DNA of 64,000 nucleotides from Deltaproteobacteria bacterium. Lineage in GTDB: Bacteria > Bdellovibrionota > FAC87 > UBA2466. Both the position numbers and the translations under genes were made by a program. Each line of letters opens with the position of its first letter. The first letter of the stretch is position 1. The stretch lies in contig JACPWY010000007.1 of the NCBI GenBank assembly GCA_016196825.1, positions 2,468-66,467 on the forward strand. The letters are read 5' to 3'. The notes beneath the pieces were generated by a model. The model ran no database searches, was not told the DNA's origin, and saw only the letters and a list, made by a program, of their open reading frames with translations. Of the stretch, positions 24,084 to 54,696 are shown piece after piece.

Positions 24084-24149
24084 GCATTTACTTATGACCG
24101 CATTAGTAATTCGGTCGGCCCTGCGGGGCCGGCCGGGTTCCTTGCGGCA

Positions 24150-25760: not shown

Positions 25761-25777
25761 AGGAGGAACAATATACT

Positions 25778-26878: not shown

Positions 26879-27360
26879 GATGGACGGGCGAGAGCTTCGA
26901 GAAGACTTGTCGTGGAATGACCTTCGACGAGTGGCAGGCACCTCACTTTGCCGCCGAATTTCTCGACGACCGCGCGCTCTGGGAGCTGCGCGGGATCGTA
27001 GTCGCCTCCTTTGACATGGAGAAAGGGGCGGAGCTTTTCGAGAAGAGATTCGGGGGTCGTTTCCGGAAACACGACCACATAATCGACGGCCTCAAGGGCC
27101 GCAATTTGCAGGGTCCTGGTGCGTTCATCGTGAATCGGGCGTTTGGGCCCTTTGAGCGTCTTTACGCTCGAGTCCGAGTTGAGTCCCACCACAAGGACGT
27201 CGCCCAGCCGTCGGGCTTCGTTGAGATATTGGATATGGCCGAGATGCAGGATATCGAAACAGCCGTTAGTGGAGACAATTCGCTTGCCGCCCGAGCGGAG
27301 GCGAACACTCAAGTCCCACACCTTGTCGAGGGGAACGATCTTATCTTCGAGCCGGCGCAC
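26875..27360 (-). CDS. D-glycero-beta-D-manno-heptose-1-phosphate adenylyltransferase-like cytidylyltransferase-fold protein (RfaE domain II / HldE C-terminal type)
   Basis: KRIVSTNGCFDILHLGHIQYLNEARRLGDVLVVGLNSDSSVKTLKGPKRP...VKGGDY is near-colinear with HldE domain II (GCFDILHAGH...VNSDAS...KGGDY). Confidence 0.8.
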   Translation of the reverse strand: MRRLEDKIVPLDKVWDLSVRLRSGGKRIVSTNGCFDILHLGHIQYLNEARRLGDVLVVGLNSDSSVKTLKGPKRPIHDERTRTLQIAALEAVDYVVVFPETTPESLLEKLRPFLHVKGGDYDPAQLPERAVVEKFGGKVRCLPLVEGHSTTSLLEALARPS

Positions 27361-32048: not shown

Positions 32049-32115
32049 TTAGGGTAGGGATGTTGGGACAAGTTGGTCACTTGCGTTCTCCGGGGTGGGG
32101 GTCTAACCTCGCGGC

Positions 32116-35166: not shown

Positions 35167-35192
35167 GAGACGCTTCCACTAAAATTGGAACT

Positions 35193-37880
35193 ATGCAAAA
35201 AATCTTGGGGTGGACGTTCGTTTTGGCAAGCAGGTGTCTGTGGGCCGACGCGATGCTACCCGGCGTTGAGTCGTCGGAGATCGGTAGCCTAGTCGCCGGT
35301 TACATTGGCCAGCTCACTCTCCCGGGTAAGGTGGAGCATCACAAGAAAATTGCGGCGCTGGTCGCCAAAAACTCGAAGTATCAAAGAGCCTTGCTTGCGA
35401 CACTCGTGAAGCAGAGCCAGGTGCAGGGCCTGGAGCCACTCAAGAAGTTGTTGCCCGCTCCGCTCGCCGCGCTTGAGAAGGCGTTACCAGCGGCCCCGAA
35501 TGCGAGCCTCTTCGGAGGCGGATTGATCGCGCCCCCCACGGGAACCTGGCTCATGCCAATCCCATTTCTTGAAGACTCTCCGCTTGAGGCGAGTGTCGCG
35601 ACCGGTGTGAAGAGCCATATCCTCTCGCCTGACGAGGTGCTTGAGCTTCAACGCAATCCCGGTTGGCTCTGTCTCCCCGACGGCCAGGCGGTGCGTACGG
35701 ATGCTGTTGTCCGCATGGTCTATCCGCGCAAAAGAGCCGAGCGGGAACGGCTTGAAAAGGGGGATGCCGAGAGCGCGATCAACGATTGGCGCGATCTGCT
35801 CAAATCCGCCGATGCCGGCAGCAATTCCGATGAGCAGCTTAAGATCGGTCTCGACAATTTTTGCCTAAAGCATCCGCTGAGCCCCCAGTGTGACCTGGCG
35901 GAAAAGGCGATTACGCCTCCCGTCGCCAAAGGAAAGGCGCCGATTGAAACGGGCCTCCTCGCCATGGCCGGGTCCGAGAACTCTGAGCAGAGGGACCTCT
36001 ACCAGCGCACGCTTCTCAAGATGGCGAGGCCCGATCTGGACGCCTTTCGAAAAAGGGTTCTTCTCGATCCGTCCGGTGAACACGCCTGCACCGTCATGCA
36101 CCTCTCCGATCCCCACCGGCTTTCGAAAGGTCTGAAGGCAGTCAGTCCGTCGCACGCGATGACGCCGGTTTTGATGAGACTTTTGCCTGAGCTTGCGGCC
36201 AATGGCGACCAGGGGGGCCTCGCGCGTGTGGCTCCGTGGATCAATGATTCGGCGATTCCATCGCTGGTGAAGAGGCTTTCGAGCGCATCGGAGGAGTCAC
36301 GCACCTTTTCCGCCGATATTTTGGGAAACTTCGGTGTGCGTGTCGTGGCGGCCTTGATTGCGGCACTCAATGACTTGGATCCCAATGTGCGACTGGGGGC
36401 CGCCCATGCCCTGGGGAAGATTGGCGAGAAGGCCGAGCCTTCCGTGTTCACACTGACCCGTTTGATCAAGGATCCTGAGAGCAAGATGCGGCAGAATGTG
36501 GCAGAGGCTCTGGGAAAAATCGGAAAGAAGGCGGCCAAGGCAATCCCCGCTCTCACCGAAGCGCTCGCGGATGCCGATGCTGGCGTAAAGGCCAATGCGG
36601 CAGAGGCGATCGGAGCCATCGGAGGAAACGCCCAAGAGCTCGTGCTGCCGCTCACAAAACTTTTAGCCGATTCCACTCCTCTCGTGCGCGCGAGTGCGGC
36701 GGCGGCGCTTGGAAAATTTGGCAACGCGGCCACCTCAGCCGTTCCAGCTTTGGTTCTTTTATTGAAAGATTCCGAAAAATTCGTGAAGCTCAATGCTTCG
36801 GAGGCACTGGGACTGATCGGAGCCGAATCGTCTGTGGCTCTCTTTGATGGGTTAGCGAGTGAAGATGAGACGATGCGTGAGATATTGACGGCCGGTATCG
36901 TGAAGCTAGGCCGAAAGGCGGTGCCGTTACTTATCAAGGAGGTTTCCAATGCGAGTGCGGCCGTCCGTGCCTCGGCGATCGGAGCGTTGGGAAAAATTGG
37001 CGACCAGGCTGCGGCCGAGTCCACGTCAATTGTGGCGGAGGCCATGACAGACGATAGCGGTTTGGTGCGGGCCACGGCGGCCGACACTTTGGGGGCCTTT
37101 GGCCCGAAGGCGTCTATCGCGATTCTGGCCCTGATCAAAGGTCTCGAAGACACCGATGAGAATGTGGCGACGAGCGCCTCGATGGCACTCTCTCAGATGG
37201 GGCCCGAGGCCTATGGCCCCGTGATTGGAGTTTTTTCGCATCCGAAAAAGGAGGTGCGCAAACTTGCTGCGGAATCGTTGGGCACGATGAAGGAGACCGT
37301 GATCCCTGTTTTGGTGGCTGCATTGAACGATCGCAATGAGACTGTGCGAGAATACTCGGCCATGACGCTCGGACTGATGGGTGAGCGTGCGGGTTCTGCC
37401 GTGCCTGCTCTTATGAAGTGTGCGGAAAATGAGGCCAGTTCGGTTCGCCGTTCTTCGGCTGAAGCGCTTGGGAAAATGGGAGGGCGGGCCATTGCGAGCA
37501 TTCCGTCGCTCACGCATCTTCTTCGGGATAAAGCCAAAGAGGTGCGCGAGAGTGCGGCCGCGGGGCTCCACAAGATGGGGCGCTTAGCGACGGGAGCGAT
37601 TCCTGCTTTGACCGAGGCGTTGAGCGATGACAACGATGTGGTCCGGTATTGGGCTTCAAAGGCTCTCCAAAATTTTGGCCCTAAGGCGGCGGACGCCGTG
37701 CCCGCGCTCACCTTGGCGCTCGCCGATGAGACCGAAACGGTCCGTGCCAATGCGGCCAAGGCTCTGGGAACCATAGGGCTCAGGGCCAAAACGGCGATGC
37801 CCCAGCTCGGGAAGGCGCTCGACGACACCGACAAACACGTGCGATCGAACGCTCAGTGGGCGCTGGAGCAGCTGCGCTAG
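35193..37880 (+). CDS. Secreted HEAT/PBS-lyase-repeat protein (over 25 tandem repeats)
   Basis: A signal-peptide-like start MQKILGWTFVLASRCLWA. The C-terminal 550 aa is built of about 31-aa units (...VRxxAAxALGKIGxxAxxAIPALxxxLxD...). The ORF is open from 35106. Confidence 0.7.
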   Translation: MQKILGWTFVLASRCLWADAMLPGVESSEIGSLVAGYIGQLTLPGKVEHHKKIAALVAKNSKYQRALLATLVKQSQVQGLEPLKKLLPAPLAALEKALPAAPNASLFGGGLIAPPTGTWLMPIPFLEDSPLEASVATGVKSHILSPDEVLELQRNPGWLCLPDGQAVRTDAVVRMVYPRKRAERERLEKGDAESAINDWRDLLKSADAGSNSDEQLKIGLDNFCLKHPLSPQCDLAEKAITPPVAKGKAPIETGLLAMAGSENSEQRDLYQRTLLKMARPDLDAFRKRVLLDPSGEHACTVMHLSDPHRLSKGLKAVSPSHAMTPVLMRLLPELAANGDQGGLARVAPWINDSAIPSLVKRLSSASEESRTFSADILGNFGVRVVAALIAALNDLDPNVRLGAAHALGKIGEKAEPSVFTLTRLIKDPESKMRQNVAEALGKIGKKAAKAIPALTEALADADAGVKANAAEAIGAIGGNAQELVLPLTKLLADSTPLVRASAAAALGKFGNAATSAVPALVLLLKDSEKFVKLNASEALGLIGAESSVALFDGLASEDETMREILTAGIVKLGRKAVPLLIKEVSNASAAVRASAIGALGKIGDQAAAESTSIVAEAMTDDSGLVRATAADTLGAFGPKASIAILALIKGLEDTDENVATSASMALSQMGPEAYGPVIGVFSHPKKEVRKLAAESLGTMKETVIPVLVAALNDRNETVREYSAMTLGLMGERAGSAVPALMKCAENEASSVRRSSAEALGKMGGRAIASIPSLTHLLRDKAKEVRESAAAGLHKMGRLATGAIPALTEALSDDNDVVRYWASKALQNFGPKAADAVPALTLALADETETVRANAAKALGTIGLRAKTAMPQLGKALDDTDKHVRSNAQWALEQLR

Positions 37881-41567: not shown

Positions 41568-42260
41568 TCATTCCGCGCCAGGTATTGTTCGCGTATAGAC
41601 GCAGTAATTGAGTGTTTCTCCACGGGGAATAATGCGACCGAAGAGTCCGCAGCCGTTGTCTTGGGTGCAGAGTCTTTCCACAGCAAAGCCGGCTCCTGAG
41701 AATGAGTCGTGATCTCTTAGCTGGAAGGCATCGACACTATTGGATTCAACCCAACTGTCATGGAAGCTTTTGAACTGCGAGAGTTTGCTCGAGTTGCTCA
41801 CCCGCTTCATGATGACATTGTAATCGGAGGCGAGACCGCGCAACAGCTCATGATGGCGCGCCCGCATGTGGGCCGTTCCAATTTCCAGATCATTCACATC
41901 CCAAACGGGCACGACCCTGAGTTTCTTATCCACTACATAGGTGTTGAGAGATGAGCGTTCCGGTGACTCGAGCTCGACCGAGTTCCAGCACCAACCAGTG
42001 TAGACGGTCTCTCTCGCGTGGCTCCTCAACTGCGGCCTGGCGGCCTGGTCGAAGGTCTCCTTGACCAACGCGAAGCTGCTCACGTTGTTGTTCTCCATCG
42101 CCTTGATGATCTGAGCGCCCGCATCGTCCTCAGCTTTACGAGCGCTCCACAGCCTCATGAGTACGCTGTCAGCGGGGCCGTTCTCACCGCCCACACCACG
42201 GCCAACGAGCGCCGCGAGCAGCAAGACAACGCAGCATGTTATTCCGCGAGTAAACATCAC
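41568..42260 (-). CDS. Secreted hypothetical protein
   Basis: Signal peptide MMFTRGITCCVVLLLAALVG. No known motif. Confidence 0.45.
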   Translation of the reverse strand: MMFTRGITCCVVLLLAALVGRGVGGENGPADSVLMRLWSARKAEDDAGAQIIKAMENNNVSSFALVKETFDQAARPQLRSHARETVYTGWCWNSVELESPERSSLNTYVVDKKLRVVPVWDVNDLEIGTAHMRARHHELLRGLASDYNVIMKRVSNSSKLSQFKSFHDSWVESNSVDAFQLRDHDSFSGAGFAVERLCTQDNGCGLFGRIIPRGETLNYCVYTRTIPGAE

Positions 42261-42450
42261 ATTCTCTGCTTCTGCTTTCGGTGGAAATGCGAACTATTTA
42301 GGCCTTCTTGTCGTCGGTGCGAATTCTGAGGCTAGTCGTAACATGTAGTCGCATTGGGTTAACTGAACGCGTTATCATTTTTTGACAGGGTTGATGAGGT
42401 GTGTCATCGGGTTCGCTCCTGCTGAGCGCGAGAACGTCCGAAAGAGGATC

Positions 42451-42633
42451 ATGATTCTCGTGTTAGCTTTGGCGGCGATTTTGGGGTGGGCGAACCCTTC
42501 TCCGACCCCAACTCCGACCGAAGATTTCGAGGAATACAAGGCCTACTGGAAGAGTTTCAAGGTACACATCGAAGCTCCGGTCGACGAAAAACCCTTTGAG
42601 GAATTTAAGCAGTCTTTTCTCAGGGGCATTTAA
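42451..42633 (+). CDS. Possible small secreted protein (about 60 aa)
   Basis: MILVLALAAILGWANPSPTPTPTE... is signal-like. It is short and overlaps the GH1 stop by 4 bp. Low confidence. Confidence 0.25.
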   Translation: MILVLALAAILGWANPSPTPTPTEDFEEYKAYWKSFKVHIEAPVDEKPFEEFKQSFLRGI

Positions 42634-44000
42634 AGAGATTCTTGGTTACAGAGTGTTTCTAGGGTTGAAACAGAAGGAGCGCTGTATCCATGCGCCGCAA
42701 TGATTTCGCGGTAGAGCTGGCCCGATCGGCGGATGGAACGTTTTTGTGTTTTGTAGTCGACGGCGCAAAGGCCGAAGCGGGGGCCGAAGCCCTTGACCCA
42801 CTCGAAGTTGTCGAGCAGTGACCAATGAAAATATCCGCGGAGGTCGATGCCTTCCGTGATCGCCTGGGCCACCTGAGTGAGGTGGGAGAAGAGATAGTCG
42901 GGTCGGAGATCATCATCATGATCGGCGATTCCGTTTTCGGTGATGTAAAGCGGCACACCATAACCTTTGAGGAAGTGGCACATGTCACCGAGGCCAGTAG
43001 GATGAATGGCCCAACCGAGATCGGATAGACGGTCGCCCTTTTTGGAAAAGACAATTCCCACCGGGGAGCTTGAGGCCGTGGGGAAAAGGTCGGGGCTGTC
43101 GCCGTGGTTGAATGGGCGACAGGCCACAAAGACGCGTGTGTAGTAGTTGACGCCGAGAAAATCGACCGTTTTACGGCCGCGGGCCTGCGGGACCTGAGCG
43201 GCCATGGGGATGATGCCGAGCACGCCGAAGTGCTGTTCGTTGCCTGTGACGGCGTCGGGCCAGCTGCGGTTGTAGAAGCGGCGAAAAAGACTGGTAACCA
43301 TGCGGTCAATGGGATGAAGCGTTCGGAGCGGGTGGAAATCGATCATGTTGTGCGCGATTCCGACCGCGATAGGGTGATCGCGGAAGGGGCCTTCGCGTTT
43401 TTGGATCTTGGAATGGATGATGTCGTAGGCCTGCACGTGCGCGCGCAACAGATTGCGTGAGGCTTTCGAGACCGAGCGAGGAGAGTAGGTTGCCGGCGGC
43501 ATGTAGCTCGCGATGTATTGCCCGACCACAAGCGTATTAGGTTCGTTGAGGGTGCACCAAAGCGGCACTCGTTTGCCGACGCGCTCAACCACGCGCTTCA
43601 CATAACCAGCAAACCAATTGGCGCTCTTTTCCGTTGTGAATCCACCCTCTCGGGCAAACCACAGAGGGGTTGTGAAATGGTGGAGCGTGAGCATCGGGAT
43701 CAGGTTTCGTTTTTCGCACTCCCCGATCAGATTCTCATACCAATCGAGGGCCTCTTTGTTCCAACGACCACACTCGGGCTCTATGCGAGACCACTCCACA
43801 CTGAACCGATAGCTGTTGAGCCCCAAATCTCGGGCGAGATCGAGGTCTTCGGCGAAGCGATTCCAGTGATCGCAGGTCAGGCCCGAGCCCTCGCCCCCCT
43901 CGATATTTCCCTGGGATTCCCAATCCCACCAATCATTGTGGATGTTGTTGCCTTCGATCTGGTGGCTACTCGTGGCCGCTCCCCAAAGAAAAGCTGTCAT
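42630..44000 (-). CDS. Glycoside hydrolase family 1 beta-glucosidase
   Basis: The N-terminus FLWGAATSSHQIEGN is the GH1 signature. Acid/base TLNEP and nucleophile ITENG are both present. Confidence 0.9.
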   Translation of the reverse strand: MTAFLWGAATSSHQIEGNNIHNDWWDWESQGNIEGGEGSGLTCDHWNRFAEDLDLARDLGLNSYRFSVEWSRIEPECGRWNKEALDWYENLIGECEKRNLIPMLTLHHFTTPLWFAREGGFTTEKSANWFAGYVKRVVERVGKRVPLWCTLNEPNTLVVGQYIASYMPPATYSPRSVSKASRNLLRAHVQAYDIIHSKIQKREGPFRDHPIAVGIAHNMIDFHPLRTLHPIDRMVTSLFRRFYNRSWPDAVTGNEQHFGVLGIIPMAAQVPQARGRKTVDFLGVNYYTRVFVACRPFNHGDSPDLFPTASSSPVGIVFSKKGDRLSDLGWAIHPTGLGDMCHFLKGYGVPLYITENGIADHDDDLRPDYLFSHLTQVAQAITEGIDLRGYFHWSLLDNFEWVKGFGPRFGLCAVDYKTQKRSIRRSGQLYREIIAAHGYSAPSVSTLETLCNQESL

Positions 44001-45127
44001 CGCGGAGTGACCAACCCGCCCGGGAGAATCTTGAGATCATTGCCGCGCCAATTGATGCGCGAGCCAAGGAGAGACTGCATCCAGATGCCGAGGGAGACTG
44101 GTTCGCGGATAAGCCAATCGAAAAAAAAGGTCCAACCCATCTTGTGTTCCATCCTTATATAGACGGCCATGTCACAGAGTAACCAGATGACCAGATGCGC
44201 AGAGAAAAAAATGGCTGGCGAAACTGAAAAGAGAGTGGCGATCGCAACGAGTCCTGAGCCGAGGCCGAAAAATGGACTGAGAAGCGGTTCGATGAGAAAC
44301 GTGAGCGGAGACTGAGCCTTTCGGATGCGCCCCCAGCGAATGTGGCGCGACCAGAATTTTTGCAGAGTGAGCGGTCCGATGTACTGCTCGATCGGCTCAT
44401 TCATGACGGCGATCTTCATGCCGAGCCGGCGAATCGCAACGCCCGCCATATAATCCTCGGCGATGTAGCGCGAGAGGGTAGAGAGGCCGCCAATGCGCGC
44501 CATCGTGGATCGGCGAAAAACCATGAGCTTTCCAACGACAAAGGGCCAGCCGATGATGGCGGCGAAATACATCCAGCGCGCGTAGAAGCCATTCAAAAAA
44601 AGACATTCGAGTCGGCCGCCGATGAGTCGCCCTTCGCGCCCAGACACAACGGACGTCACGACGCCGACATTAGGTTTGAGATACGTGACGATTCTGTGAA
44701 GCATGTCCCGGGAGGTGCGGGTGTTGCTGTCGCTCACCCAGATGGTGTCGTGCGAGGCGTTCTCGTACGCCTCGAGCATATTGTTCACCTTCGGGTTCGG
44801 GCCGATATGAGCGGAGCTGATGATGATGTTGGCGTCCACGAAGGGGTATTTTCGACAGAGATTCTCAATCACCGCCTGGGCGCGATCACCCGGCTGGAGG
44901 CAGAAGAGGATTTCGAAGAGTGGGTAGTCGAGCTGGAAATAGGTCTCAACACCCTCCTCAAAGCCGGGGTCGATTCCTTTGATGGGCTTGATGATGGAGA
45001 CGCCGACGATCTCCGTGTCATCGATCAAGTCGGAACGCCGATAACAGACAAGCGTGATGAGAGTGGACAGGAACTGGGTGCCGATGCCGAAGGCCCAGAG
45101 GAAAAAAGCTGACCACGCCAGAATCAT
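43997..45127 (-). CDS. GT21-family glycosyltransferase, homolog of eukaryotic ceramide glucosyltransferase (UGCG)
   Basis: Blocks colinear with human UGCG:
- VGVSIIKPIKGIDP (UGCG PGVSLLKPLKGVDP).
- ETYFQLDYP (ETFFELDYP).
- NPKVNNM (NPKINNL).
- IWVSDSN (IWICDSG).
- YIAEDYMAG (YIAEDYFMA).
- Q..RHIRW (QSRMIRW).
Its stop/start overlap both neighbours by 4 bp. Confidence 0.8.
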   Translation of the reverse strand: MILAWSAFFLWAFGIGTQFLSTLITLVCYRRSDLIDDTEIVGVSIIKPIKGIDPGFEEGVETYFQLDYPLFEILFCLQPGDRAQAVIENLCRKYPFVDANIIISSAHIGPNPKVNNMLEAYENASHDTIWVSDSNTRTSRDMLHRIVTYLKPNVGVVTSVVSGREGRLIGGRLECLFLNGFYARWMYFAAIIGWPFVVGKLMVFRRSTMARIGGLSTLSRYIAEDYMAGVAIRRLGMKIAVMNEPIEQYIGPLTLQKFWSRHIRWGRIRKAQSPLTFLIEPLLSPFFGLGSGLVAIATLFSVSPAIFFSAHLVIWLLCDMAVYIRMEHKMGWTFFFDWLIREPVSLGIWMQSLLGSRINWRGNDLKILPGGLVTPR

Positions 45128-45885
45128 GCCGCTGTCCGATCGTAGAAGACGACCTCCAGCTGCTGACTCTTGATGCTTTGGAGGATGGCCTCTCGAGTTT
45201 TTTCACAATGAAGCTTTGTCTTGTAAGACCGTATCTGGCGGCGGTCGTGGAGATCGCTTGAGGCGATCTTGGGGAGGCTCTCGTTCTTCACGGCCTCGAA
45301 GAGGATGGAGCCGCTCGCCACTTCCCAGGCGTCAAACAATGTCTTGAGCTCCTCTTTGCGATCCCAGAGGTGAAAGGTCTGCTTTTCAAACTTTCCCGAG
45401 AGCACGGGGTGGGCAGCGATGCTGAGCCCGCCTTGGGCTCGAATTCTTTTGCACAGGTCGGCGACATCCCCGTCGGCCGAGATATAGTCATCTACCCCGA
45501 GGCCCAAGAGATGCGCGGACCGGTGGTTAGAAAGAGAATTCTTGCTGAGCTCAAAGCCGGGGATGACGATCATCTGGTACTGCTCCCAGGCCCGGATCGT
45601 CTCCGATTGCAGAATGGCCCTATAGAGGGGGAAGGTGGCCGGCGTGAGGACCTGGTTGAGCCACTGCGAAGCCTTACCGATAATCGAGCCCTCTTCGGCG
45701 ATGTGATCCGTGATAGCGATGGCGCCAAATCCATGGGACCCGTAAAGGTCGATCACTTCGGGAATGGAATGGCGACCATCGCTAAAGTTTGAGTGGACAT
45801 GAAAATCGGCTAAGAACGACGCCTTCATGCATGAACAGTATCGGCAACGAATGTCAGGGCCGTGTTGGGGCCTGGTTAGGTTCAA
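45124..45885 (-). CDS. PHP-domain metal-dependent phosphoesterase
   Basis: FLADFHVHSNFSDGRHS...ITDH is the PHP His-cluster. Confidence 0.75.
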   Translation of the reverse strand: MNLTRPQHGPDIRCRYCSCMKASFLADFHVHSNFSDGRHSIPEVIDLYGSHGFGAIAITDHIAEEGSIIGKASQWLNQVLTPATFPLYRAILQSETIRAWEQYQMIVIPGFELSKNSLSNHRSAHLLGLGVDDYISADGDVADLCKRIRAQGGLSIAAHPVLSGKFEKQTFHLWDRKEELKTLFDAWEVASGSILFEAVKNESLPKIASSDLHDRRQIRSYKTKLHCEKTREAILQSIKSQQLEVVFYDRTAA

Positions 45886-45895
45886 ATTAAGCAGC

Positions 45896-48800
45896 CTAAT
45901 CGACCACGGCTTTGGGGGTTGGGCTGAGTTTCCGACGGAGCCAGTCCACCGCTAAGAATGCAACCGGGACCACGACCAGGCTCAAAAAAGTCGAGCTGAC
46001 GAGGCCGCCGATGATGGTGATGCCCATGCTGACTCGTTGTTTAGACGCCTCGTTGAGGCCAATGGCGACTGGAAGCATGCCTGCGATGAGGGCGATGCTG
46101 GTCATGAGGATGGGGCGCAGGCGGACCTTCCCCGCCTCCACAATGGCGTCTTTTCTTTCCCAGCCCTCGCGGATGAGTTGGCTGGTGTAATCAACGAGTA
46201 AGATAGAGTTCTTGGTCGCAATTCCCAAGAGCATCACGCCGCCGATCATCGAATAAATGTCGAGCGATTGATGGGTCAGCTTGAGCGCGAAGAAGGCGCC
46301 ACACACGGCGAGAGGGAGCACCACCATAATCGACAAAGGTGTCGCGAAGGATTCATAAAGACTCGCCAGCACGAGGTAGATGAATAGGATCGCGAGTCCG
46401 ATCGCGAGCAGCATGTTTTCGATGAGCTCTTTGAAGCTCTCGGCCTGTCCGACGTATTGGTACTTGATGCCTGGCGGGAGTTTGTTTTCGCCGCTTGAGA
46501 CGAGCGTATCGATCTCTTTCATCACAGCGTTCATCCCCTCGCCACCGGGGGTCATATCGGCGCCGATCTGAACCGCCCGGCCGCGCTCTTGGCGCGAAAT
46601 CGTCGAGGGGCCGGTCGTTGAGACGGGGTGGGCCACGTTCGCCAGGCGAATGAGGCTCATGTTGACGTTGGGAACATAGATATTGGCAAAATCTTTACGG
46701 ATGTTCCGTTGGTCGGCCTGGAGGCGGACCCGGATATTGTATTCGCGGCCATTCTCACGATACACCGCCGGAGTCATCCCCTCGACCTGGGTTCTCAACT
46801 CCATTCCAATCGCGGCGCTCGAAACGCCGAGGCCCTGGCCCCGGGCATTGTCCCAGACTACTTGGAACTCAGGCTTTCCCGATTTGAAACTGAGCTCGAC
46901 GTCCTTGAGACCAGGGTTCTTTTTCAATTTCTCAAAAATTCCGGTCGTGTAGTCCTGGAGCTGTTTCAGATCATCGCCGACGAAGAGAACGTTGAAGGGG
47001 CGCTGTCCTCCGCCCATGCCGTCGTAGTCTTTCACGATCGGGTTGGCCGAATTGAAGGGCTTCACCTGCTCACGCAGATGATCTTTCACCATGGAGGTGG
47101 TGATGCCCTTGCGTTGTTTGGAGGGAACCAGCGTGACAAAGAAGGTGGCGACATTCGTCTCGCCCTCTGCGTTTCCGAGGATGAGTGTGGAGGCGGCCAC
47201 CTCTTTGTTGTCCCGGATCAGCTCGTCGATTTTGCTGGCGATGGCTTCGGTCGCATCCAAATTGGAACCCGGCTGGAGCTCTAGGGTGACGGAAAATTCG
47301 CCGTTGTCCTGCGGGGGCAGAAAAGTCTTGGGAACATACTTGGCAGTGATGATACTCAAGACAAAGATCCCGAACGCTCCACCTCCTACGACGAATGGGT
47401 GCCGCAGCGTAAACCTGAGCGCCACCTCATAGACCGACACGAGCCAATTTTGGAACCTTTCGAAAGCCGTGAGAAGAGGCCCCAAGGTGACCCGCCAGAC
47501 AGCGCCACCGTCCTTGTGCATTCCACCGCCGAAGTAGGCCGAAAGCATCGGGGCCATCGTGAGAGCGTCGAAGAGGCTAATAGCCATGATGAAGCAAACC
47601 GAAAGGCCGAACTGTTTGAAGAACTGTCCGACGATGCCTTTCAAAAAGCCAATCGGGCCAAACACGGCGATGACGGTCAACGTGGTGGCGATGACGGCGA
47701 GCTGAACCTCCTTCGCCCCTAGAGAAGCTGCCTCCATTGGTTTCTTACCGAGCTCCATGTGGCGAAAAATATTTTCGCGGACCACGATCGCGTCGTCGAT
47801 GAGAAGCCCCACGGCGAGGCTCAGGGCTAAGAGAGTCATCATGTTGATGGTGAAGCCGGCAAGGCTCATCAGAAAGAAAGCGCCGATGAGAGAGTTGGGA
47901 ATTGCGATGCCGGTGATGAGAGTCGATCGGACGTTTCCCAGAAAGAACAGCACGACGATCAGGGTGAGAACGATGCCTATGTAAATCGCGTCGGTCACGT
48001 CTTCGACGTTATCGCGGATGACCTTGGCACCGTCGCGAACGATCGAGACTTGGGGTGTGCCGGTCACGGTCTTCAGTTGAGCATTGATCGTCTTGATGCG
48101 TGAAGTGACAGCATCGGCCACTGCGATCGTGTTGGCGCCAGACTGTCGGAAGATGCTCAGAAAGACACCCTTCTTGCCGTTATTAAAGGTGCGGCTCGCC
48201 TCATCCTCAAGAGAGTCCACCACCCGGCCCAGTTCCTTCACGCGAACCGGGACTTCGTTGCCAGCGAAGCTTACGATGGTATTGCCGATCTCCTCCACCG
48301 ACTTAAACTCCGCAATGCTGCGGACTACAGTGTCGTTGCCGCCTTCGGCCACCTTCCCCGCAGGAATATTTTGCCCGGCTGCCCCCAGCCGACCAGAAAC
48401 CATGGACGCCGCCATCTCGTATTGTTTGAGCTTATTGCGATCCAGGAGCACTTGGATTTCTCTCTTACGACCACCCATCACGGCGACGAGACCGACGCTT
48501 GGGATCTGTTCGAGTTTGGGCCGGATCAGCTGATCGGCCACATCGTAGAGTTTGCCCTCATCGAGGTCAGCCGAGATCGAGAGAATCAAGATGGGCTGAT
48601 CGGCTGGGTCGAGGCGGCGGATCACGGGCTCCTTCACGTCCGCCGGAAGCTTGCGGCGCAATGAGGAAACGCGCTCGCGCACCTGCTGTTCAGCGTACTT
48701 CACATCGGTCTCGAGATAGAATTCAGCGATCGTGATGCCGAGGCTTTCTTTGTTGATCGAGCGCAGGGTCTTGATGCCGGCGAGTGTGCTCAGTTCATCC

Positions 48801-49003
48801 TCGATAGGCTTGGCGATGAGCGTTTCCACTTCAGACGGGCCGGCTCCGGGGTACGGAATCGAAACCACGATGACCGGGAAGGTCACGTCGGGGAAGAGGT
48901 CCACTGGCATTCGTTTGAGCCCCAGGAAACCCACGGCGAGCATGAGGATCACAAGGCATGTCATGAAGATGGGACGCTTAATGGAGAGGTCGATGATATT
49001 CAT
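45896..49003 (-). CDS. RND-family efflux transporter permease (AcrB/HAE1-like)
   Basis: 1035 aa with 12 TM helices. Typical N-terminus MNIIDLSIKRPIFMTCLVILMLAVGFLG and two large periplasmic loops. Confidence 0.9.
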   Translation of the reverse strand: MNIIDLSIKRPIFMTCLVILMLAVGFLGLKRMPVDLFPDVTFPVIVVSIPYPGAGPSEVETLIAKPIEDELSTLAGIKTLRSINKESLGITIAEFYLETDVKYAEQQVRERVSSLRRKLPADVKEPVIRRLDPADQPILILSISADLDEGKLYDVADQLIRPKLEQIPSVGLVAVMGGRKREIQVLLDRNKLKQYEMAASMVSGRLGAAGQNIPAGKVAEGGNDTVVRSIAEFKSVEEIGNTIVSFAGNEVPVRVKELGRVVDSLEDEASRTFNNGKKGVFLSIFRQSGANTIAVADAVTSRIKTINAQLKTVTGTPQVSIVRDGAKVIRDNVEDVTDAIYIGIVLTLIVVLFFLGNVRSTLITGIAIPNSLIGAFFLMSLAGFTINMMTLLALSLAVGLLIDDAIVVRENIFRHMELGKKPMEAASLGAKEVQLAVIATTLTVIAVFGPIGFLKGIVGQFFKQFGLSVCFIMAISLFDALTMAPMLSAYFGGGMHKDGGAVWRVTLGPLLTAFERFQNWLVSVYEVALRFTLRHPFVVGGGAFGIFVLSIITAKYVPKTFLPPQDNGEFSVTLELQPGSNLDATEAIASKIDELIRDNKEVAASTLILGNAEGETNVATFFVTLVPSKQRKGITTSMVKDHLREQVKPFNSANPIVKDYDGMGGGQRPFNVLFVGDDLKQLQDYTTGIFEKLKKNPGLKDVELSFKSGKPEFQVVWDNARGQGLGVSSAAIGMELRTQVEGMTPAVYRENGREYNIRVRLQADQRNIRKDFANIYVPNVNMSLIRLANVAHPVSTTGPSTISRQERGRAVQIGADMTPGGEGMNAVMKEIDTLVSSGENKLPPGIKYQYVGQAESFKELIENMLLAIGLAILFIYLVLASLYESFATPLSIMVVLPLAVCGAFFALKLTHQSLDIYSMIGGVMLLGIATKNSILLVDYTSQLIREGWERKDAIVEAGKVRLRPILMTSIALIAGMLPVAIGLNEASKQRVSMGITIIGGLVSSTFLSLVVVPVAFLAVDWLRRKLSPTPKAVVD

Positions 49004-50427
49004 TGGGGGCTCCCGAAAGTTTTCATCTGCGCCACGAGCGTGAGAATCTCAGCTTGGGTTTGGATGCGCCCGAATTCGGATTGGGAATAGTCCTGCTCGA
49101 AAGCGAGGATCTGATAGGTGGTGCTGCGTCCCTTTTTGTGGCGCTCCCGTTCGTGGTCGAGTTTATTTTTTTGAATCCGCTCGATGTTAGTCACCAGTTC
49201 AAGGCGTTTCTTCGCCTGTGACAATCTGTTGTTGAGGTCGGTCCACTCGACCTCGACCTCAAACGTTTTTCGTCGGGCATTGAGCTCCGCGGCCTGTCTC
49301 TCTTTGAAGGCCCCTTCGCGGGTGGAATTGATCAGACCAAATTCCAGAGGGGCGATGAGCTTGAGCCCAATGGAGTAGGTCGGAGCGCTCGTTTGGAAGG
49401 AATTGCCCGTGGCTGTGCCGAAGGCGGCATCCCGACCGTTGAGTGCGACGCTGCCGGTGACATCGAATGTCGGCTTATTCTTGTGAAGATAGAGCTCGTA
49501 GGCCGCCTCGGCCGCGCGCAGCCCCTCACGCGCCGCCATCACATCTTCGCGGTCTTTGTTACGGGGAGGAGCATCCATTGCCACGAACTTTTCGGGTGAA
49601 AAATCGACGAGCTCATCGGTGATGGCGTCACCATCGGTTCCCAGGAGCGAAAGAAACGCGCGAATGGCAGAGTGTTCTTCGTCGAGCGCCGCCTGCAGCT
49701 CCATCGTTCTTAACTGCAGTGCCGCGTCGGCTTGGAAGACATCCGCTTTGTCAGCGAGCTCGAGTCTTGCTCGGTTGTCGGAGTAGGCCTTAAGCCTTTG
49801 AGCCCGTTCCAGGCCGCTTCGTTTGACCCGGACCGTTTCTCGTGCGAGCGCGAGCCGCCAGTAGTATTGCTCGGCCTGCATGAGGAGCATTTTGCTCTTG
49901 TAGCGTTCCCCATAGCTTGTTGCGAGCGCCTGCGCCTCCTGGGCCTGGGTTCCGGCAGTGATCTCCGCGCCAAAACCGTTTTTCCAAAGGGATTGCGAAA
50001 TCTCCAGAACGGGCCGAGCTTCGTAAAAGGTGGGGACAGCGAGGAGCGTGGGGCTCACCCCGGCAATCGTTGTGTAGGAAACGAGATAATAGAGCTTCGA
50101 CAGGAGTCCAAAGTTGGTCATCTTGGAGACGCCCAGGGTATAGGTGCTGTTCGTGGTCTCGGTGCCCATGAAGGCTGGCACCGCTGTTGGCTTTGCGTCA
50201 TCGAGGAAGTTCGCGGCGAAGAAGAGATTGGGGGCGAAGATGAGAGAAGAATCCTTTGAGCGAGCTTCGCTTCCTTCGGCGCTATTCTTAGATGCGATGT
50301 ACCCTTCGTGCTTTGTTTTCACATTCTCGAGGTATTGGTGAAGAGTAAGCGGTGCAGCAAAGGAGGCGGTTATCGTTGAGATGAGTGCCAGGACTAGTAT
50401 TCCTAGGTGAGTGTGTCGAGGTGTCAT
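49000..50427 (-). CDS. TolC-like outer membrane efflux protein
   Basis: Signal peptide. Two repeated coiled-coil/beta-barrel halves of the OEP type. Its stop overlaps the RND gene start (4 bp). Confidence 0.7.
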   Translation of the reverse strand: MTPRHTHLGILVLALISTITASFAAPLTLHQYLENVKTKHEGYIASKNSAEGSEARSKDSSLIFAPNLFFAANFLDDAKPTAVPAFMGTETTNSTYTLGVSKMTNFGLLSKLYYLVSYTTIAGVSPTLLAVPTFYEARPVLEISQSLWKNGFGAEITAGTQAQEAQALATSYGERYKSKMLLMQAEQYYWRLALARETVRVKRSGLERAQRLKAYSDNRARLELADKADVFQADAALQLRTMELQAALDEEHSAIRAFLSLLGTDGDAITDELVDFSPEKFVAMDAPPRNKDREDVMAAREGLRAAEAAYELYLHKNKPTFDVTGSVALNGRDAAFGTATGNSFQTSAPTYSIGLKLIAPLEFGLINSTREGAFKERQAAELNARRKTFEVEVEWTDLNNRLSQAKKRLELVTNIERIQKNKLDHERERHKKGRSTTYQILAFEQDYSQSEFGRIQTQAEILTLVAQMKTFGSPQ

Positions 50428-50546: not shown

Positions 50547-51737
50547 GTGCGCTCACCCAACCCCAGACTCCGAAATATCCGGGAACGCCTCGCTCGCCAG
50601 ACGGAGAGCGATTTCGGCATTGGTGTGGTCAGCCGAAACAGCGTGGATGCGGCGATCGAGGCGGCCTACGCCGCCAATCGCCCGGTGATGCTGATTGCGA
50701 CTCGGCGGCAGGTGGAATCGGCCGAATTGGGCGGTGGGTATGTGAATGGGTGGACGACGCGAACCTTTGCACAGTATGTGCGGGCTCGCGATCCGAATGG
50801 CCTCATTCTTCTCGGCCGAGACCACGGTGGCCCCTGGCAGCACCCGCTTGAACTTGATCGCAACTATGATGAGGCCCGGGCGTTGCGCTCGGCGATCGAC
50901 TCATACCGAGAGGATATCGACAACGGCTTTGATCTTCTCCACATCGACACCGGCAGCTCCCTGCATGGAGAGCCATCGGTCGAGAAGGCCGTGGAGCGGA
51001 TGGTTATTCTTTATGACTGGTGCATTCGTTACGCTGCTCTCCACGAAAAGGAGATTGGAATTGAGGTCGGAGCCGAGGACCAGCGCAATGAGGCCGCCGA
51101 CCCGAAATCGTTCGCCGTCACGCATGACAAGATAGTGCAGAGCCTTCGGGCCAAGGGTTTGCCGCTGCCGCTTTTCGAGGTGGCGCAAACCGGAACGAAA
51201 GTCGTCGAGGATCGCAATACGGGGGTCTTCACCCAGGTCTCAAGGCAGTCTCAAACCGCTCGAAATGTTCGCGGCATGGTCGAGATCGCCGGCCGGGATG
51301 GTGTCTACATCAAGGCGCACAATTGCGATTATCTCAATGACCAAGAGCTTAAGGCTTTTGCTGGGTTGGGTGTCGGCGGGATCAATGTGGCGCCGGAACT
51401 CGGGGTCTTTGAGACCCGATCCCTATTGAGGTTATTGGAGGCGCGCGGCCTCACCGAAGAGAAGGCGGCCTTTGTTGTGCTCGCCCAACGTTCGGGGAAG
51501 TGGAAGAAATGGTTGAGTGATGGGCGTCGGGCGACTTCTGTGGAATGCGCCGTCTTGGGTGGCCATTACGTTTTTGCGACCGAAGAATGTGTTCGCATCA
51601 AGGAGACCCTGGCCCACCGAATGGGGCGGACCGTTGCTGAGCTCGACCAATTGCTCATCGGAGATCTTGTTGGCTGCATCCAACGCTACTGGGCGAAAAC
51701 AAAACAACCATGGCAGACCTTGAACGGCGCGGCCTAG
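50547..51737 (+). CDS. GatZ/KbaZ-family protein (class II tagatose-bisphosphate aldolase accessory/non-catalytic subunit-like)
   Basis: GGYVNGWTTRTFAQYVRARDPNGLILLGRDHGGPWQH parallels GatZ GGYTGMTPADF...RIILGGDHLGPNCWQ. Confidence 0.5.
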   Translation: MRSPNPRLRNIRERLARQTESDFGIGVVSRNSVDAAIEAAYAANRPVMLIATRRQVESAELGGGYVNGWTTRTFAQYVRARDPNGLILLGRDHGGPWQHPLELDRNYDEARALRSAIDSYREDIDNGFDLLHIDTGSSLHGEPSVEKAVERMVILYDWCIRYAALHEKEIGIEVGAEDQRNEAADPKSFAVTHDKIVQSLRAKGLPLPLFEVAQTGTKVVEDRNTGVFTQVSRQSQTARNVRGMVEIAGRDGVYIKAHNCDYLNDQELKAFAGLGVGGINVAPELGVFETRSLLRLLEARGLTEEKAAFVVLAQRSGKWKKWLSDGRRATSVECAVLGGHYVFATEECVRIKETLAHRMGRTVAELDQLLIGDLVGCIQRYWAKTKQPWQTLNGAA

Positions 51738-52219
51738 CGGTTGCGCTCACGGAGATGTCTCTCTCCGAACAATTGGATAACGCGCCAAAGCCAGCTGATC
51801 CCGGCCAGGCGTCGCTCATTCTTGGCTCGACCAAAACTTGCAAATTGGTGACTAAGCATTGGGGCTATGAAAAATGGATCGTGCACGCCGGGGCGCCCTT
51901 TGCCTTTAAGCTCCTGTTTCTCAAAGCCGGCTTTCGTACGAGTCTCCAGTACCACGAAAAAAAGGAGGAGTGCATGCTCCTTCTCTCGGGTTGGGTCCGC
52001 CTTCATTACCAGGATGAGGCCGGCTTACCGAAAACAATGGATCTCAACGCCGGACACACGATCCACGTCAAACCCAATACGGTTCACCGCGTGGAAGCGA
52101 TCAACGACTCCTTTTACGCCGAGGTCTCAACGGCTGAGCTGGATGACGTGATCCGGATTCAGGATGATAATGGCCGACCCGATGGTCACATCGCCCGTGA
52201 GCACAAGGGGAAGGCGTGA
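51710..52219 (+). CDS. Cupin-domain protein, mannose-6-phosphate-isomerase type II-like
   Basis: KHWGYEKW...FKLLFLKAGFRTSLQYHEKKEE...GHTIHVKPNTVHRV matches the MPI-II cupin motif. It overlaps the upstream gene by 28 bp and the downstream one by 4 bp. Confidence 0.6.
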   Translation: MADLERRGLAVALTEMSLSEQLDNAPKPADPGQASLILGSTKTCKLVTKHWGYEKWIVHAGAPFAFKLLFLKAGFRTSLQYHEKKEECMLLLSGWVRLHYQDEAGLPKTMDLNAGHTIHVKPNTVHRVEAINDSFYAEVSTAELDDVIRIQDDNGRPDGHIAREHKGKA

Positions 52220-52950
52220 TCGGACTCTTCATTCTCTGCTACAGAGTGGGTCGGCGCATTCAAGATGTTGTGATGACACTCCCCGAATCTGTCATCAATT
52301 CTGTCGATGAGATCATCGTCATCGACAACGGCAGCGATGACGACACGGCCGTCTGGGCGGAAAGAGCCATTCAGAAACGCTGTGACCCGAAGTTTGCCCT
52401 CCTCAGAAACCCGAGAAATTACGGCTATGGAGGCTCTCACAAGGTGGCCTTCGACTATTTTCTCTCACGCAGAATGGACTACGCCATTCTCTACCACGGT
52501 GATGGCCAGGGCGACTCAGAGGCCTTGAAGGAGCTCATCCGAATGGCGCAGGAGAATCGCTGGGATTTTGTGATTGGCAGTCGTTTCAAAGACATTGCCC
52601 GTCTCAGCGGGAGGTATTCGTTGGGGCGCCGTTGGGGAAATCTGTTCTTTGTGTGGTTGCAGAAGATTGTGTCAGGACTCAACATCACCGACCCCGGGAG
52701 CGGAGAGGTGGCTTACTCTCTCAATTTCATTAAGAGGCACATCCCATACCGGCAATTGACCGATTCCTTTCACTTCACGCCACAACTGCTCCTCCATGCG
52801 AGCCGTCGGAAGGTCTCGATCACGGAGATCCCCATCAGCTGGGGCGAGGTCGAGACGAGTTCCGCAAACATCTACCGCCACGCCTGGAACATGCTGAAGA
52901 TGCTTGTCCGATTTCGGCTCTCAGGGCGCCTCGACGCTTTTCGCAGCTGA
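52216..52950 (+). CDS. GT2-family glycosyltransferase (polyprenyl-phosphate sugar synthase / DPM1-like)
   Basis: IVIDNGSDDDT, NPRNYGYGGSHKVAF and YHGDGQ. Confidence 0.75.
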   Translation: MIGLFILCYRVGRRIQDVVMTLPESVINSVDEIIVIDNGSDDDTAVWAERAIQKRCDPKFALLRNPRNYGYGGSHKVAFDYFLSRRMDYAILYHGDGQGDSEALKELIRMAQENRWDFVIGSRFKDIARLSGRYSLGRRWGNLFFVWLQKIVSGLNITDPGSGEVAYSLNFIKRHIPYRQLTDSFHFTPQLLLHASRRKVSITEIPISWGEVETSSANIYRHAWNMLKMLVRFRLSGRLDAFRS

Positions 52951-54696
52951 TTCGCACCAAAGTTTGAAATCAAAGATCTCCTTTGTGGGAGGAACGGTGA
53001 CGGGACCGCCCGTGACGAGTCCCCAGGTCTGGTATCGCGTGCGGTCAATGTAGCTCGGAACGTGGTCGCGGAGGATCTTTTCCGGAATCACCTGGGAGGG
53101 AGCGGCTCCGGCCGCGATGAGGGCTCTCAAATTCGCATCCATCTTCTCAAGGTAGATCTTGTTCCAGGAGTGGGGACAACTTCTGACGTAGAAATCGCGA
53201 AGGGATCGACCCCAGTCGAGTGGCGTGTAGCCGTCGGAGTCGGCGATCTTCAGATCAGCACCGCTGGCAACGAGAGTTTTCACGAAGTCTGGGTTCAAAT
53301 TCAGTGTCGCTCGGACAGCCAAGATCAGCGGAGTGGTCTTGTTCTTTTTCCATCCGCTCAGTTCATTCACATCGGCCTTGGCATCGAGCAGCAGTTGGGC
53401 CAGTCGGTAGTCCGGTGTCTTTCCCGAGGGGAGCGAAGAGGTTTGTTCATTCTGGCTCATGACGGGATTGTTCGACATGCCTCCCATATGGCCGTGGTAT
53501 CGGACTGCCTCCCTCCAATGGGTGATTAGAGATTCTCCGAGTGGCCCAAACCCGGTTTCAAAATGGAAATCGACCGAGGCACCATACTCCTGAGTGAGTG
53601 ACTTGATGAAATCAAAGTAAGCCTCCGACCAACTATCTCCCTCTAAAATGGCTCGAATAGATTTTTTGAGAGCTTGAGTCAGGACTGCCTCGCTGAGCTT
53701 GGCGTCGGCCAGAAGAAGGAATGAAACCAGATTGCCTTCTCTGAACGCTGTCTCTGCCGCCAGATCCAGGCCGGACTGAGTGGGCCCGAGGGCCAGCATG
53801 ATTTTGAGAAACGCCTGGTTCCCGTGGACGGCCGCCCAGCCAAGTCCCAGGTTCACGACAGAGTCGTGCTCGTGGCTCACCTTGGTCATCTCAACGAGCG
53901 AGTCCAGTTGAGGTTGGGAGAGTTTGTATCTATAGAGAGTCTGGAAGAGGGTCATGCCATCGTGAGCGTGAGTATCGACACGAGCCCCATTGCGAATCAG
54001 AATCTTCACAACCTCGAATCGCTCATCATACGCGGCCAAATAGATCGGCGTTCGCCCAGCGCCGTCGCGACAGTTCGGGTTCACGAGATTGGGTTTCGCC
54101 AGAAGCTCCTCAACCTCATGAATATTTCCGAGTTTTGCTTCTTGAAGGAGTTTGAGCTCAAGAATGCGTTGCGATTGTTTCACTTCACCGGAAGGCTTGT
54201 AATAGGCGGCCCACACGGCGTTAGCCACCGAGGCCGCGAAAAGATCATCCTTGCCGAAGTGGTGCACGGCTTCGCCAATGAAGTGGCGAGTGGCATCGGC
54301 CTCGGTGTGCGCCTTGCAGTTGTCCTTGAAAAGGTAAAACGGAGTCCCCTTTGTTTCGGACGTATATCCGCAGAGAGTTGGGACCAACTTAAATTCTTCG
54401 AACTTCTTGTACTGGTCCCAAAGTTGTGGGCAGTTTTCGATCTCGGAAAGGAGTTCGCCGCGGTTATCGTCAAAAAATTTGAGAACGAGGGCATCATACC
54501 CGGTTTCCGCTGGGAAGGCCGCAACCTTGGCATCGCTCACCATCTTCATCGACTGACGCCAACCCTGCTCGAAAGTTCTAATAACTTTGTCGCCTCCCCG
54601 ACCGGGATCATTGCCGGGAATCGGTCCGCTTTCGCCGAATAGGATCGACCCGGCTATGAATGCGAATAGGCTTGCGGCTAGAGTCGTGGTTTTCAT
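52921..54696 (-). CDS. Secreted ankyrin-repeat protein
   Basis: Signal peptide MKTTTLAASLFAFIAGS. Ankyrin units include GRTPIYLAAYDERFEVVKILIRNGARVD and TTPLILAVRA...VKTLVASGADLKIADSDGYTPLDWG. Confidence 0.7.
   Translation of the reverse strand: MKTTTLAASLFAFIAGSILFGESGPIPGNDPGRGGDKVIRTFEQGWRQSMKMVSDAKVAAFPAETGYDALVLKFFDDNRGELLSEIENCPQLWDQYKKFEEFKLVPTLCGYTSETKGTPFYLFKDNCKAHTEADATRHFIGEAVHHFGKDDLFAASVANAVWAAYYKPSGEVKQSQRILELKLLQEAKLGNIHEVEELLAKPNLVNPNCRDGAGRTPIYLAAYDERFEVVKILIRNGARVDTHAHDGMTLFQTLYRYKLSQPQLDSLVEMTKVSHEHDSVVNLGLGWAAVHGNQAFLKIMLALGPTQSGLDLAAETAFREGNLVSFLLLADAKLSEAVLTQALKKSIRAILEGDSWSEAYFDFIKSLTQEYGASVDFHFETGFGPLGESLITHWREAVRYHGHMGGMSNNPVMSQNEQTSSLPSGKTPDYRLAQLLLDAKADVNELSGWKKNKTTPLILAVRATLNLNPDFVKTLVASGADLKIADSDGYTPLDWGRSLRDFYVRSCPHSWNKIYLEKMDANLRALIAAGAAPSQVIPEKILRDHVPSYIDRTRYQTWGLVTGGPVTVPPTKEIFDFKLWCESAAKSVEAP

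Follow-up and report, generated by a model that had tools for sequence, protein, structure and literature searches.

Three closely packed genes of a predatory-type bacterium related to Bdellovibrionota raise the question of why a phosphoesterase of the PHP family, a membrane glycosyltransferase of family 21 (GT21) and a beta-glucosidase of glycoside hydrolase family 1 (GH1) should be kept together. The genes lie on a stretch of 64,000 nucleotides (Deltaproteobacteria bacterium, assembly GCA_016196825.1, contig JACPWY010000007.1, positions 2,468 to 66,467 of the forward strand), the whole of which was analyzed and is referred to below as the 64-kb window. UGCG, the human ceramide glucosyltransferase (EC 2.4.1.80), is a GT21 enzyme and the non-lysosomal glucosylceramidase GBA3 belongs to GH1. 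The exchange of phospholipids for phosphorus-free glycolipids, in turn, is a major bacterial answer to phosphate scarcity, known mainly from the PlcP-Agt and PlcP-Pgt systems of Proteobacteria. The answer that we favour, with somewhat better than even confidence, is that the three genes form a self-contained operon for the remodelling of membrane lipids when phosphate is limiting, with phosphorus-free glycolipids as its products. The family assignments and the synteny behind this answer are firm and the Pho regulation is well supported; the biochemical roles proposed for the PHP and GH1 proteins are its weak part.

The trio was read on the minus strand, in the order PHP, GT21, GH1, within positions 42630-45885 of the window. 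The first gene encodes a PHP-family metal-dependent phosphoesterase of 234 amino acids (aa) (45124-45828), recognized by the Pfam PHP profile and a match to PDB 2anu; the second a GT21 membrane glycosyltransferase of 376 aa (43997-45127), recognized by Pfam PF13506 and a match to human UGCG; and the third a GH1 retaining beta-glucosidase of 456 aa (42630-44000), recognized by Pfam PF00232 and by both catalytic glutamate motifs. An earlier note on this DNA had named these three families and described open reading frames with 4-bp overlaps on both sides of the GT21 gene. The Pfam profile search put all three proteins above their cutoffs, and re-reading of the coordinates and junctions gave an ATGA overlap in each case, GCG GCA TGA / ATG ATT between PHP and GT21 (45124-45127) and CCG CGA TGA / ATG ACA between GT21 and GH1 (43997-44000). 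These overlaps suggest that the translation of the three genes is coupled. The same note had started the PHP gene at a TTG at 45885, and this proved to be 57 nt too far upstream. The most likely start is the ATG at 45828 (234 aa), in agreement with public gene calls, and the TTG is unlikely because the 57 nt up to the ATG hold a promoter element, described below.

The GT21 protein matched the Pfam family Glyco_transf_21 (PF13506) with 158.2 bits (E 1.8e-46, cutoff 21.7) over profile positions 3-174 of 174, and was colinear with the structure of human UGCG (PDB 26qf; E 6.8e-55, residues 32-372 against 42-387), which places it in GT21. Human UGCG shared 33% identity with it across 346 residues (192 bits) in BLASTP. 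The colinearity with UGCG that the earlier note had proposed from conserved sequence blocks was borne out by the alignment: VSIIKPIKGIDP, ETYFQLDYP, NPKVNN, IWVSDS, YIAEDY and QKFWSRHIRW were all present and in register, the catalytic motifs IWVSDS, YIAEDY and SRHIRW pairing with IWICDS, YIAEDY and SRMIRW of UGCG. Residues D133, E224, D225, R261, R264 and W265 were invariant across 36 homologues, and a hydropathy scan, which is crude and not a topology prediction, marked hydrophobic segments near the N-terminus (9-27) and the C-terminus (282-324). Homologues with 40-50% identity were plentiful and were frequently annotated as 'ceramide glucosyltransferase'. The enzyme is proposed to be a UDP-hexose:lipid beta-hexosyltransferase, with diacylglycerol (DAG) and/or ceramide as the predicted acceptor.

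The best NCBIfam match of the GT21 protein was HpnI (TIGR03472), the bacteriohopanetetrol glucosamine glycosyltransferase, which shares its Pfam family. However, the score of 219.5 bits lay under the trusted cutoff of 310, the identity with true HpnI was 27% (about 107 bits), neither hpnJ (radical-SAM) nor hpnK was found near the GT21 gene, unlike at a true hpnI locus (L083), and HpnI sat outside the GT21 clade of the window protein in the tree. An HpnI or hopanoid identity was rejected on these grounds. Membership in the Pgt type was also rejected, since the alphaproteobacterial (Pgt-type) GT21 proteins formed a separate clade in 200 of 200 neighbour-joining bootstraps and no PlcP homologue was found by tblastn in the Bdellovibrionota-type cassette loci; the resemblance to Pgt is functional alone.

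The conservation of the locus was surveyed in 80 GT21 loci, one genome per species, with neighbours identified by tblastn and by clustering of open reading frames. The 31 closest loci (35-50% identity over the best segment) all came from Bdellovibrionota-type metagenome-assembled genomes (Oligoflexia, Bdellovibrionia and Bacteriovoracia), and the informative set consisted of 29 Bdellovibrionota-type loci with sufficient flanking sequence. A GH1 gene adjoined the GT21 gene in 24 of these 29, directly downstream in 23 and upstream and divergent in L008, and a PHP gene stood directly upstream of GT21 in 22, as it also did in L066. Outside Bdellovibrionota, GT21 and GH1 were adjacent in six loci from Zixibacteria, GN15, Ignavibacteria and Thermodesulfovibrionales; GH1 adjoined GT21 on the upstream side in the first three groups, and the gene order in the Thermodesulfovibrionales locus was GH1-PHP-GT21. 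The 5' flanks of the cassette in the relatives carried unrelated housekeeping genes (QueG, MFS, PurK, HtrA, MMPL). The RND and OEP genes that precede the trio in the window were not conserved with it, an RND gene being near the cassette in one other locus alone. The trio, and especially the GT21-GH1 pair, the most widely conserved of the cassette, is a conserved and portable unit. The earlier suspicion that these genes act together is backed by this adjacency in some 30 loci from several phyla.

Signs of decay were seen at two of the loci. The PHP gene was broken into two open reading frames in L011 (5150-5957), by a frameshift or a sequencing error, and GH1 was reduced to a 78-aa GH1-like remnant after GT21 in L026 (5746-5979).

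The promoter element sits inside the 67-nt gap between the stop of the RND gene and the start of the PHP gene. A pattern search detected a Pho-box-like site of three direct repeats with an exact 11-bp spacing (45853-45881, minus strand), and a -10-like hexamer, GATACT, was read from the sequence (45837-45842, minus strand), with 10 nt separating it from the last repeat and 8 nt from the PHP ATG. The full element is ACCTAAC-cagg-CCCCAAC-acgg-CCCTGAC-attcgttgcc-GATACT-gttcatgc-ATG (45881-45828). The pattern CCYRAC-N5-CCYRAC-N5-CCYRAC had this single match in the window, against 0.02 expected. In the architecture typical of Pho boxes, tandem 7+4 bp repeats take the place of the -35 box at 10 bp from the -10 box, and the reverse complement of the repeat, TGTCAGG, resembles the Escherichia coli half-site CTGTCAT. 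A regular-expression search upstream of the cassette for the E. coli-type Pho box TGTCA-N6-TGTCA gave essentially nothing. A consensus scan of 42200-46100 found no canonical -35 box, as would be expected of an activator-dependent promoter, and a scan of the same interval for promoters and terminators gave nothing decisive, with one weak hairpin across the RND stop codon. Since the -10-like hexamer lies only 8 nt before the PHP ATG, the cassette mRNA is probably leaderless or near-leaderless.

The same arrangement was found on alignment in about 18 related loci, which carried two or three YCCTRAC-type repeats, 11-bp spaced, in the matching position ahead of the PHP start, followed about 10 nt later by GATAAT, GATACT or CATAAT at 6-8 nt 5' of the ATG. 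Loci without PHP (L006, L020 and L030) retained the repeats ahead of GT21. The repeats were first spotted by eye and then modelled as a half-site weight matrix, which gave 26 tandem sites when run over 299 kb of related loci, compared with 2.2 in shuffled sequences. Sites that had not been used for the matrix preceded pstS (L003, and L013 slightly under the threshold), olsB-like genes (L004 and L031) and ppk1 (L031). Two more such tandem sites (L005:12507-12600) preceded a PAP2-family phosphatase gene (L005:12601-13005) divergent from ppk1, which suggests that this gene, too, belongs to the putative regulon, with a part in lipid metabolism or phosphate scavenging. The layout of the element and its sharing with pstS, olsB-like, PAP2 and ppk1 genes give good support to its assignment to the Pho regulon, in which a PhoB-type regulator would bind the element and induce the cassette. 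The cassette promoter would be independent of the RND pump. A place for the trio in an RND/OEP efflux operon was rejected, given the lack of conservation of the pump with the cassette and the cassette's own promoter element.

The neighbours of the cassette in the relatives were identified through NCBIfam. PstS, PstC, PstB, PhoU and Ppk1 exceeded their trusted cutoffs, while PhoB, PhoR, Ppx and OlsB were best matches that fell below cutoff; PstB was counted in L003, L013 and L026 alone, the ABC ATPase cluster having also held unrelated ABC-F proteins. Phosphate-homeostasis genes, the recurrent neighbours on its 3' side, or an olsB-like gene adjoined the cassette in 13 of the 31 relatives, in at least three independent arrangements. 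In L003 and L013 GH1 was followed directly by a pstS-pstC-pstA-pstB-phoU series on its own strand, and phoU, or phoU-pstB-phoB-like, was near the cassette in L021 and L026. A ppk1 gene accompanied by an exopolyphosphatase-like (ppx) gene and/or a histidine phosphatase was present in L005, L012, L014, L016, L023, L031 and L032. A phoB/phoR-like pair was directly upstream in L011, as was a phoB-like gene in L066 (Thermodesulfovibrionales, outside the 31), and L026 was also counted among the loci with such a pair. An olsB-like gene for an ornithine-lipid acyltransferase was near the cassette in L004, L014, L023 and L031; ornithine lipid is another phosphorus-free lipid.

PlcP-Pgt or PlcP-Agt modules are carried by Sinorhizobium, Agrobacterium, Mesorhizobium, SAR11, roseobacters and methanotrophs, and, judged by analogy, the nearest functional precedent for the cassette is this bacterial lipid remodelling and not a eukaryote-style signalling cycle. 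In these modules a Pho box is followed by a phosphoesterase gene and, directly after it, by the gene of a lipid glycosyltransferase (PMC4796936, PMC3972451, PMC9239053), as described for the phospholipase C gene plcP in marine bacteria (PMC4796936). Pgt of Agrobacterium and Mesorhizobium is a processive GT21 enzyme with a predicted Pho box that makes beta-glycosyl-DAG lipids under phosphate deprivation; it is promiscuous, taking DAG or ceramide as acceptor, and prefers DAG (PMC3972451). A PlcP-like gene adjoined the Pgt-type GT21 gene in 11 of the alphaproteobacterial loci, divergent or downstream except in L084 (Pannonibacter), where it immediately preceded the GT21 gene and overlapped it by 4 bp, in the same position as the PHP gene of the window. 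No GH1 gene was found in the alphaproteobacterial GT21 loci surveyed. The window locus shares with these modules a phosphoesterase gene upstream of a lipid glycosyltransferase gene (GT21 in the Pgt type) and a Pho-type site. It differs from them in its phosphoesterase, which is PHP-fold whereas PlcP is calcineurin-like and LpxH-related, in its GT21, which falls in a separate clade nearer UGCG, and in the additional GH1 gene. The cassette thus looks like a PlcP-Pgt module in which a phosphoesterase of unrelated fold has taken the place of PlcP and which has gained a glycosidase.

The PHP protein scored 30.3 bits against Pfam PF02811 (cutoff 26.4) and matched PDB 2anu (TM0559 of Thermotoga, an uncharacterised protein) with E 5.4e-39 over residues 24-245 of the 253-aa open reading frame. 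The metal-ligand motifs DFHVHS, ITDH, GFE, AAHP and SDLH were kept relative to TM0559. A hydropathy scan found neither a transmembrane segment nor a signal peptide, and the protein was read as soluble. It was rejected as a PlcP, since the fold family differs and the tblastn search with a PlcP-like protein matched nothing in the cassette loci, gene position and putative regulation alone being shared. By analogy, it is proposed to cleave a phospholipid, phosphatidate or phosphosphingolipid so that phosphate and a neutral lipid anchor are set free; a lipid substrate is suggested solely because the position of the gene matches that of PlcP.

The GH1 protein scored 298.5 bits against Pfam PF00232 (Glyco_hydro_1) and contained both catalytic glutamate motifs, TLNEP (acid/base) and ITENG (nucleophile), aligned with those of BGPh (PH0366) from Pyrococcus horikoshii. 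BGPh was also the nearest solved structure (1vff, 303.7 bits, all others at 266 or less), and the score against the canonical bacterial BGL equivalog (TIGR03356) was 307.9 bits, under the cutoff of 478.5. Judged by these matches, the protein belongs to a divergent, BGPh-like subgroup and not to canonical BGL. It aligns with BGPh across the whole barrel and differs in having about 33 more residues, with inserted segments near positions 200-215 and 295-315; a hydropathy scan found no hydrophobic segment. BGPh is membrane-associated and favours long-alkyl glucosides, its relative BGTl hydrolyses steryl glucosides, and alkyl and steryl glucosides are hydrolysed at interfaces by relatives of BGPh (PMC4687101). 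The link to lipid glucosides that had first been drawn through GBA3 is supported, by way of BGPh and its preference for long-alkyl glucosides, GBA3 not being the nearest relative. Because of the conserved coupling and the BGPh-like affinities, GH1 may work on the headgroup of the glucosyl-lipid, whether it trims, transglycosylates or turns it over. A synthase/hydrolase 'cycle' of GT21 and GH1 is something that we infer, and in the form of a plain futile cycle it is unattractive for co-translated genes; more plausible roles for GH1 are the trimming of the products of a processive transferase, SFR2-like transglycosylation or a fast reversal upon the return of phosphate.

The lipid-remodelling operon would work as follows. 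At low phosphate, a PhoB-type regulator would bind the three 11-bp-spaced YCCTRAC repeats standing in for the -35 box and induce a single message, from which the three genes would be co-translated via the two ATGA overlaps. The soluble PHP protein would free a neutral lipid anchor and phosphate, a job done elsewhere by the unrelated PlcP and assigned here by positional analogy alone. GT21 would then move glucose or galactose from a UDP-sugar to this anchor at the cytoplasmic face, giving a phosphorus-free beta-hexosyl lipid. The soluble, BGPh-like GH1 would act on the same headgroup at the membrane surface, trimming or redistributing the sugars laid down by a processive GT21, or alternatively dismantling the glycolipid once phosphate returns. 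As the acceptor in PHP-containing cassettes we lean slightly towards DAG, in view of the Pgt precedent and the PlcP analogy, and regard ceramide as nearly as likely.

Several observations weigh against this proposal. The search of the 64-kb window for genes of ceramide synthesis or related to DAG gave none, and queries with the proteins of the relatives detected no pst, pho, ppk, ppx or olsB homologue in it even at E < 10; the Pho link of the window locus therefore comes from the cis element alone. The repeat motif differs from characterised Pho boxes, the weight matrix was built by eye, and the relatives are all metagenome bins. PHP enzymes of known function work on soluble phosphoesters, a literature search turned up no PHP-domain lipid phosphoesterase, and we know of no PHP-family enzyme that acts on lipids. 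Finally, little would seem to be gained by expressing a synthase together with an enzyme that hydrolyses its product, unless GH1 has another substrate or is a transferase.

The alternative that survives best, possible but doubtful, is a bacterial glucosylceramide cycle in which GT21 would be a ceramide-specific UGCG orthologue and GH1 a glucocerebrosidase, working as UGCG does with GBA2 or GBA3. Such a cycle would turn over sphingolipid headgroups in sphingolipid-making Bdellovibrionota; it fits Pho control and differs from the lipid-remodelling operon mainly in anchor and specificity. In its favour, the window GT21 is nearer to human UGCG than to Pgt-type proteins or HpnI, and UGCG joined the Bdellovibrionota GT21 clade in 131 of 200 neighbour-joining bootstraps and the alphaproteobacterial clade in 9, a moderate support obtained by a distance method with one eukaryotic sequence. 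The margin is, however, small, as Sinorhizobium Pgt-type GT21 shares 30-32% identity with the window protein (about 160 bits) against the 33% of UGCG. The label 'eukaryote-type' given in the earlier note can be kept as a fair one with moderate support, in view of the identities and the bootstraps and within the limits of a single eukaryotic sequence and a distance method. In common with UGCG and the glucosylceramidases, the locus shows full-length colinear homology, shared motifs and hydrophobic ends in its GT21, and the pairing of a synthase with a GH1 that has lipid-type aglycone relatives. It differs in its organization as a bacterial operon, which includes a PHP gene and a Pho-type promoter, and in its GH1, which is nearest to the archaeal BGPh and not to GBA3.

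Bdellovibrio is also listed as a sphingolipid producer (PMC10626005). In Caulobacter crescentus a ceramide is glycosylated solely under phosphate starvation, by Sgt1 and Sgt2, which are reported to be ceramide-specific and nearest to Sphingomonadaceae glycosyltransferases (PMC6445935). By description, this system resembles the cassette in its starvation-restricted lipid glycosylation, with ceramide as a possible acceptor, and differs in that no phosphoesterase or glycosidase partner is described. Additionally, L020 (11-484), L025 (2691-3716) and L030 (2908-3951) carry, two genes upstream of GT21, a gene that matches FA_desaturase and the N-terminal domain Lipid_DES (37 bits, cutoff 23), and the 341-aa protein of L025 is, judged by this match, a homologue of eukaryote-type dihydroceramide (sphingolipid delta-4-) desaturase. 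However, these DES-like neighbours are confined to a Bacteriovoracaceae/Bdellovibrionales sub-clade without PHP, and the desaturase of the window (32116-32964) is not similar to that of L025. Nor does the window hold a gene for serine palmitoyltransferase or ceramide synthase. Its sole class I/II aminotransferase (25778-26941) is GntC/VioD-like and was rejected as a serine palmitoyltransferase. Moreover, the characterised bacterial GT21, Pgt, is a promiscuous enzyme that prefers DAG (PMC3972451). It is unlikely, if conceivable, that the Bdellovibrionota GT21 clade is the closest bacterial lineage to the eukaryotic glucosylceramide synthase and a true ceramide glucosyltransferase, which with GH1, and with the delta-4-desaturase in one sub-clade, would form a bacterial glucosylceramide pathway. 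If true, this pathway would have given rise to its eukaryotic counterpart or been acquired from eukaryotes, according to the direction of transfer, and the PHP superfamily would gain its first lipid-active member.

It is improbable that the cassette serves the synthesis of oligoglycosyl lipids, with GH1 as a transglycosidase shifting sugars between glycolipids, as plant SFR2 does, and with GT21 and GH1 as a two-step pair. Retaining GH1 enzymes are capable of transglycosylation, and SFR2 itself is a glycolipid (galactolipid) transferase of family GH1. That GH1 is co-transcribed with the synthase and translationally coupled to it would be easier to understand if both enzymes served biosynthesis than if they formed a futile cycle, and the wide conservation of the GT21-GH1 pair is a further point in favour of this reading. 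Against this, both catalytic glutamates of the window protein are intact, with no sequence mark of a transferase, and its nearest characterised relatives, BGPh and BGTl, are hydrolases (PMC4687101).

An incidental adjacency, with GH1 as an ordinary cytoplasmic cellobiose or aryl-beta-glucoside hydrolase, PHP as a soluble nucleotide- or histidinol-type phosphatase and GT21 acting on, for example, a hopanoid, or with all three as passengers of the RND operon, could draw on the HpnI match (219.5 bits), on the RND and OEP genes 67 nt upstream on the same strand and on the soluble substrates of PHP enzymes of known function, but it is very improbable in view of the HpnI cutoff, the 27% identity and the missing hpnJ and hpnK (present in L083), of RND and OEP genes not conserved with a cassette that has its own conserved promoter element, and of an adjacency with 4-bp overlaps kept across phyla where no beta-glucoside transporter or regulator is present.

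As a lipid-remodelling operon, the cassette would extend this response to Bdellovibrionota, and probably to Zixibacteria and relatives, by way of a non-homologous phosphoesterase, and no PHP-fold enzyme would have been assigned a function in lipids before. To our knowledge, a dedicated glycolipid glycosidase is a step without a described counterpart in bacterial lipid remodelling, and the cassette would add one. The repeats would provide a candidate Pho box for the poorly studied phylum Bdellovibrionota, usable for the prediction of its Pho regulon. The closeness of GT21 to UGCG and the DES-like neighbour may also offer tractable bacteria for studying the origin of the eukaryotic glycosphingolipid enzymes.

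Other genes of the window were also recorded. Upstream of the cassette, the OEP gene (475 aa) overlaps the AcrB-type RND pump gene (1035 aa) by 4 bp (45896-50427, minus strand), with no periplasmic adaptor (MFP) gene alongside and a divergent gene upstream. The latter belongs to a three-gene sugar cluster (GatZ/KbaZ-like, cupin and GT2 glycosyltransferase; 50547-52950, plus strand) with overlapping boundaries of its open reading frames, which is divergent from the OEP gene across a common intergenic region of 119 bp. Further genes of lipid type, for an AurF-like di-iron oxygenase, an SDR, a membrane fatty-acid desaturase and a GDSL lipase (28345-29358, 31233-32964 and 8556-9653), were not linked to the cassette in any of the relatives. 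A mobile-element patch (14779-18199) contains an HNH endonuclease, an IS91-family (Y2) transposase and a tyrosine recombinase, and its G+C content dips to about 0.50-0.52. Two eukaryote-like repeat proteins, a HEAT/Armadillo protein of 924 aa and an ankyrin protein of 591 aa, are encoded at 35106-37880 and 52921-54696. Finally, region 19842-26941 (minus strand) may be an uncharacterised biosynthetic cluster: its GntC/VioD-like pyridoxal-phosphate enzyme, of the capreomycidine-synthase type (279 bits to GntC, below cutoff), is preceded by three consecutive proteins of 509-536 aa with no Pfam or NCBIfam match.

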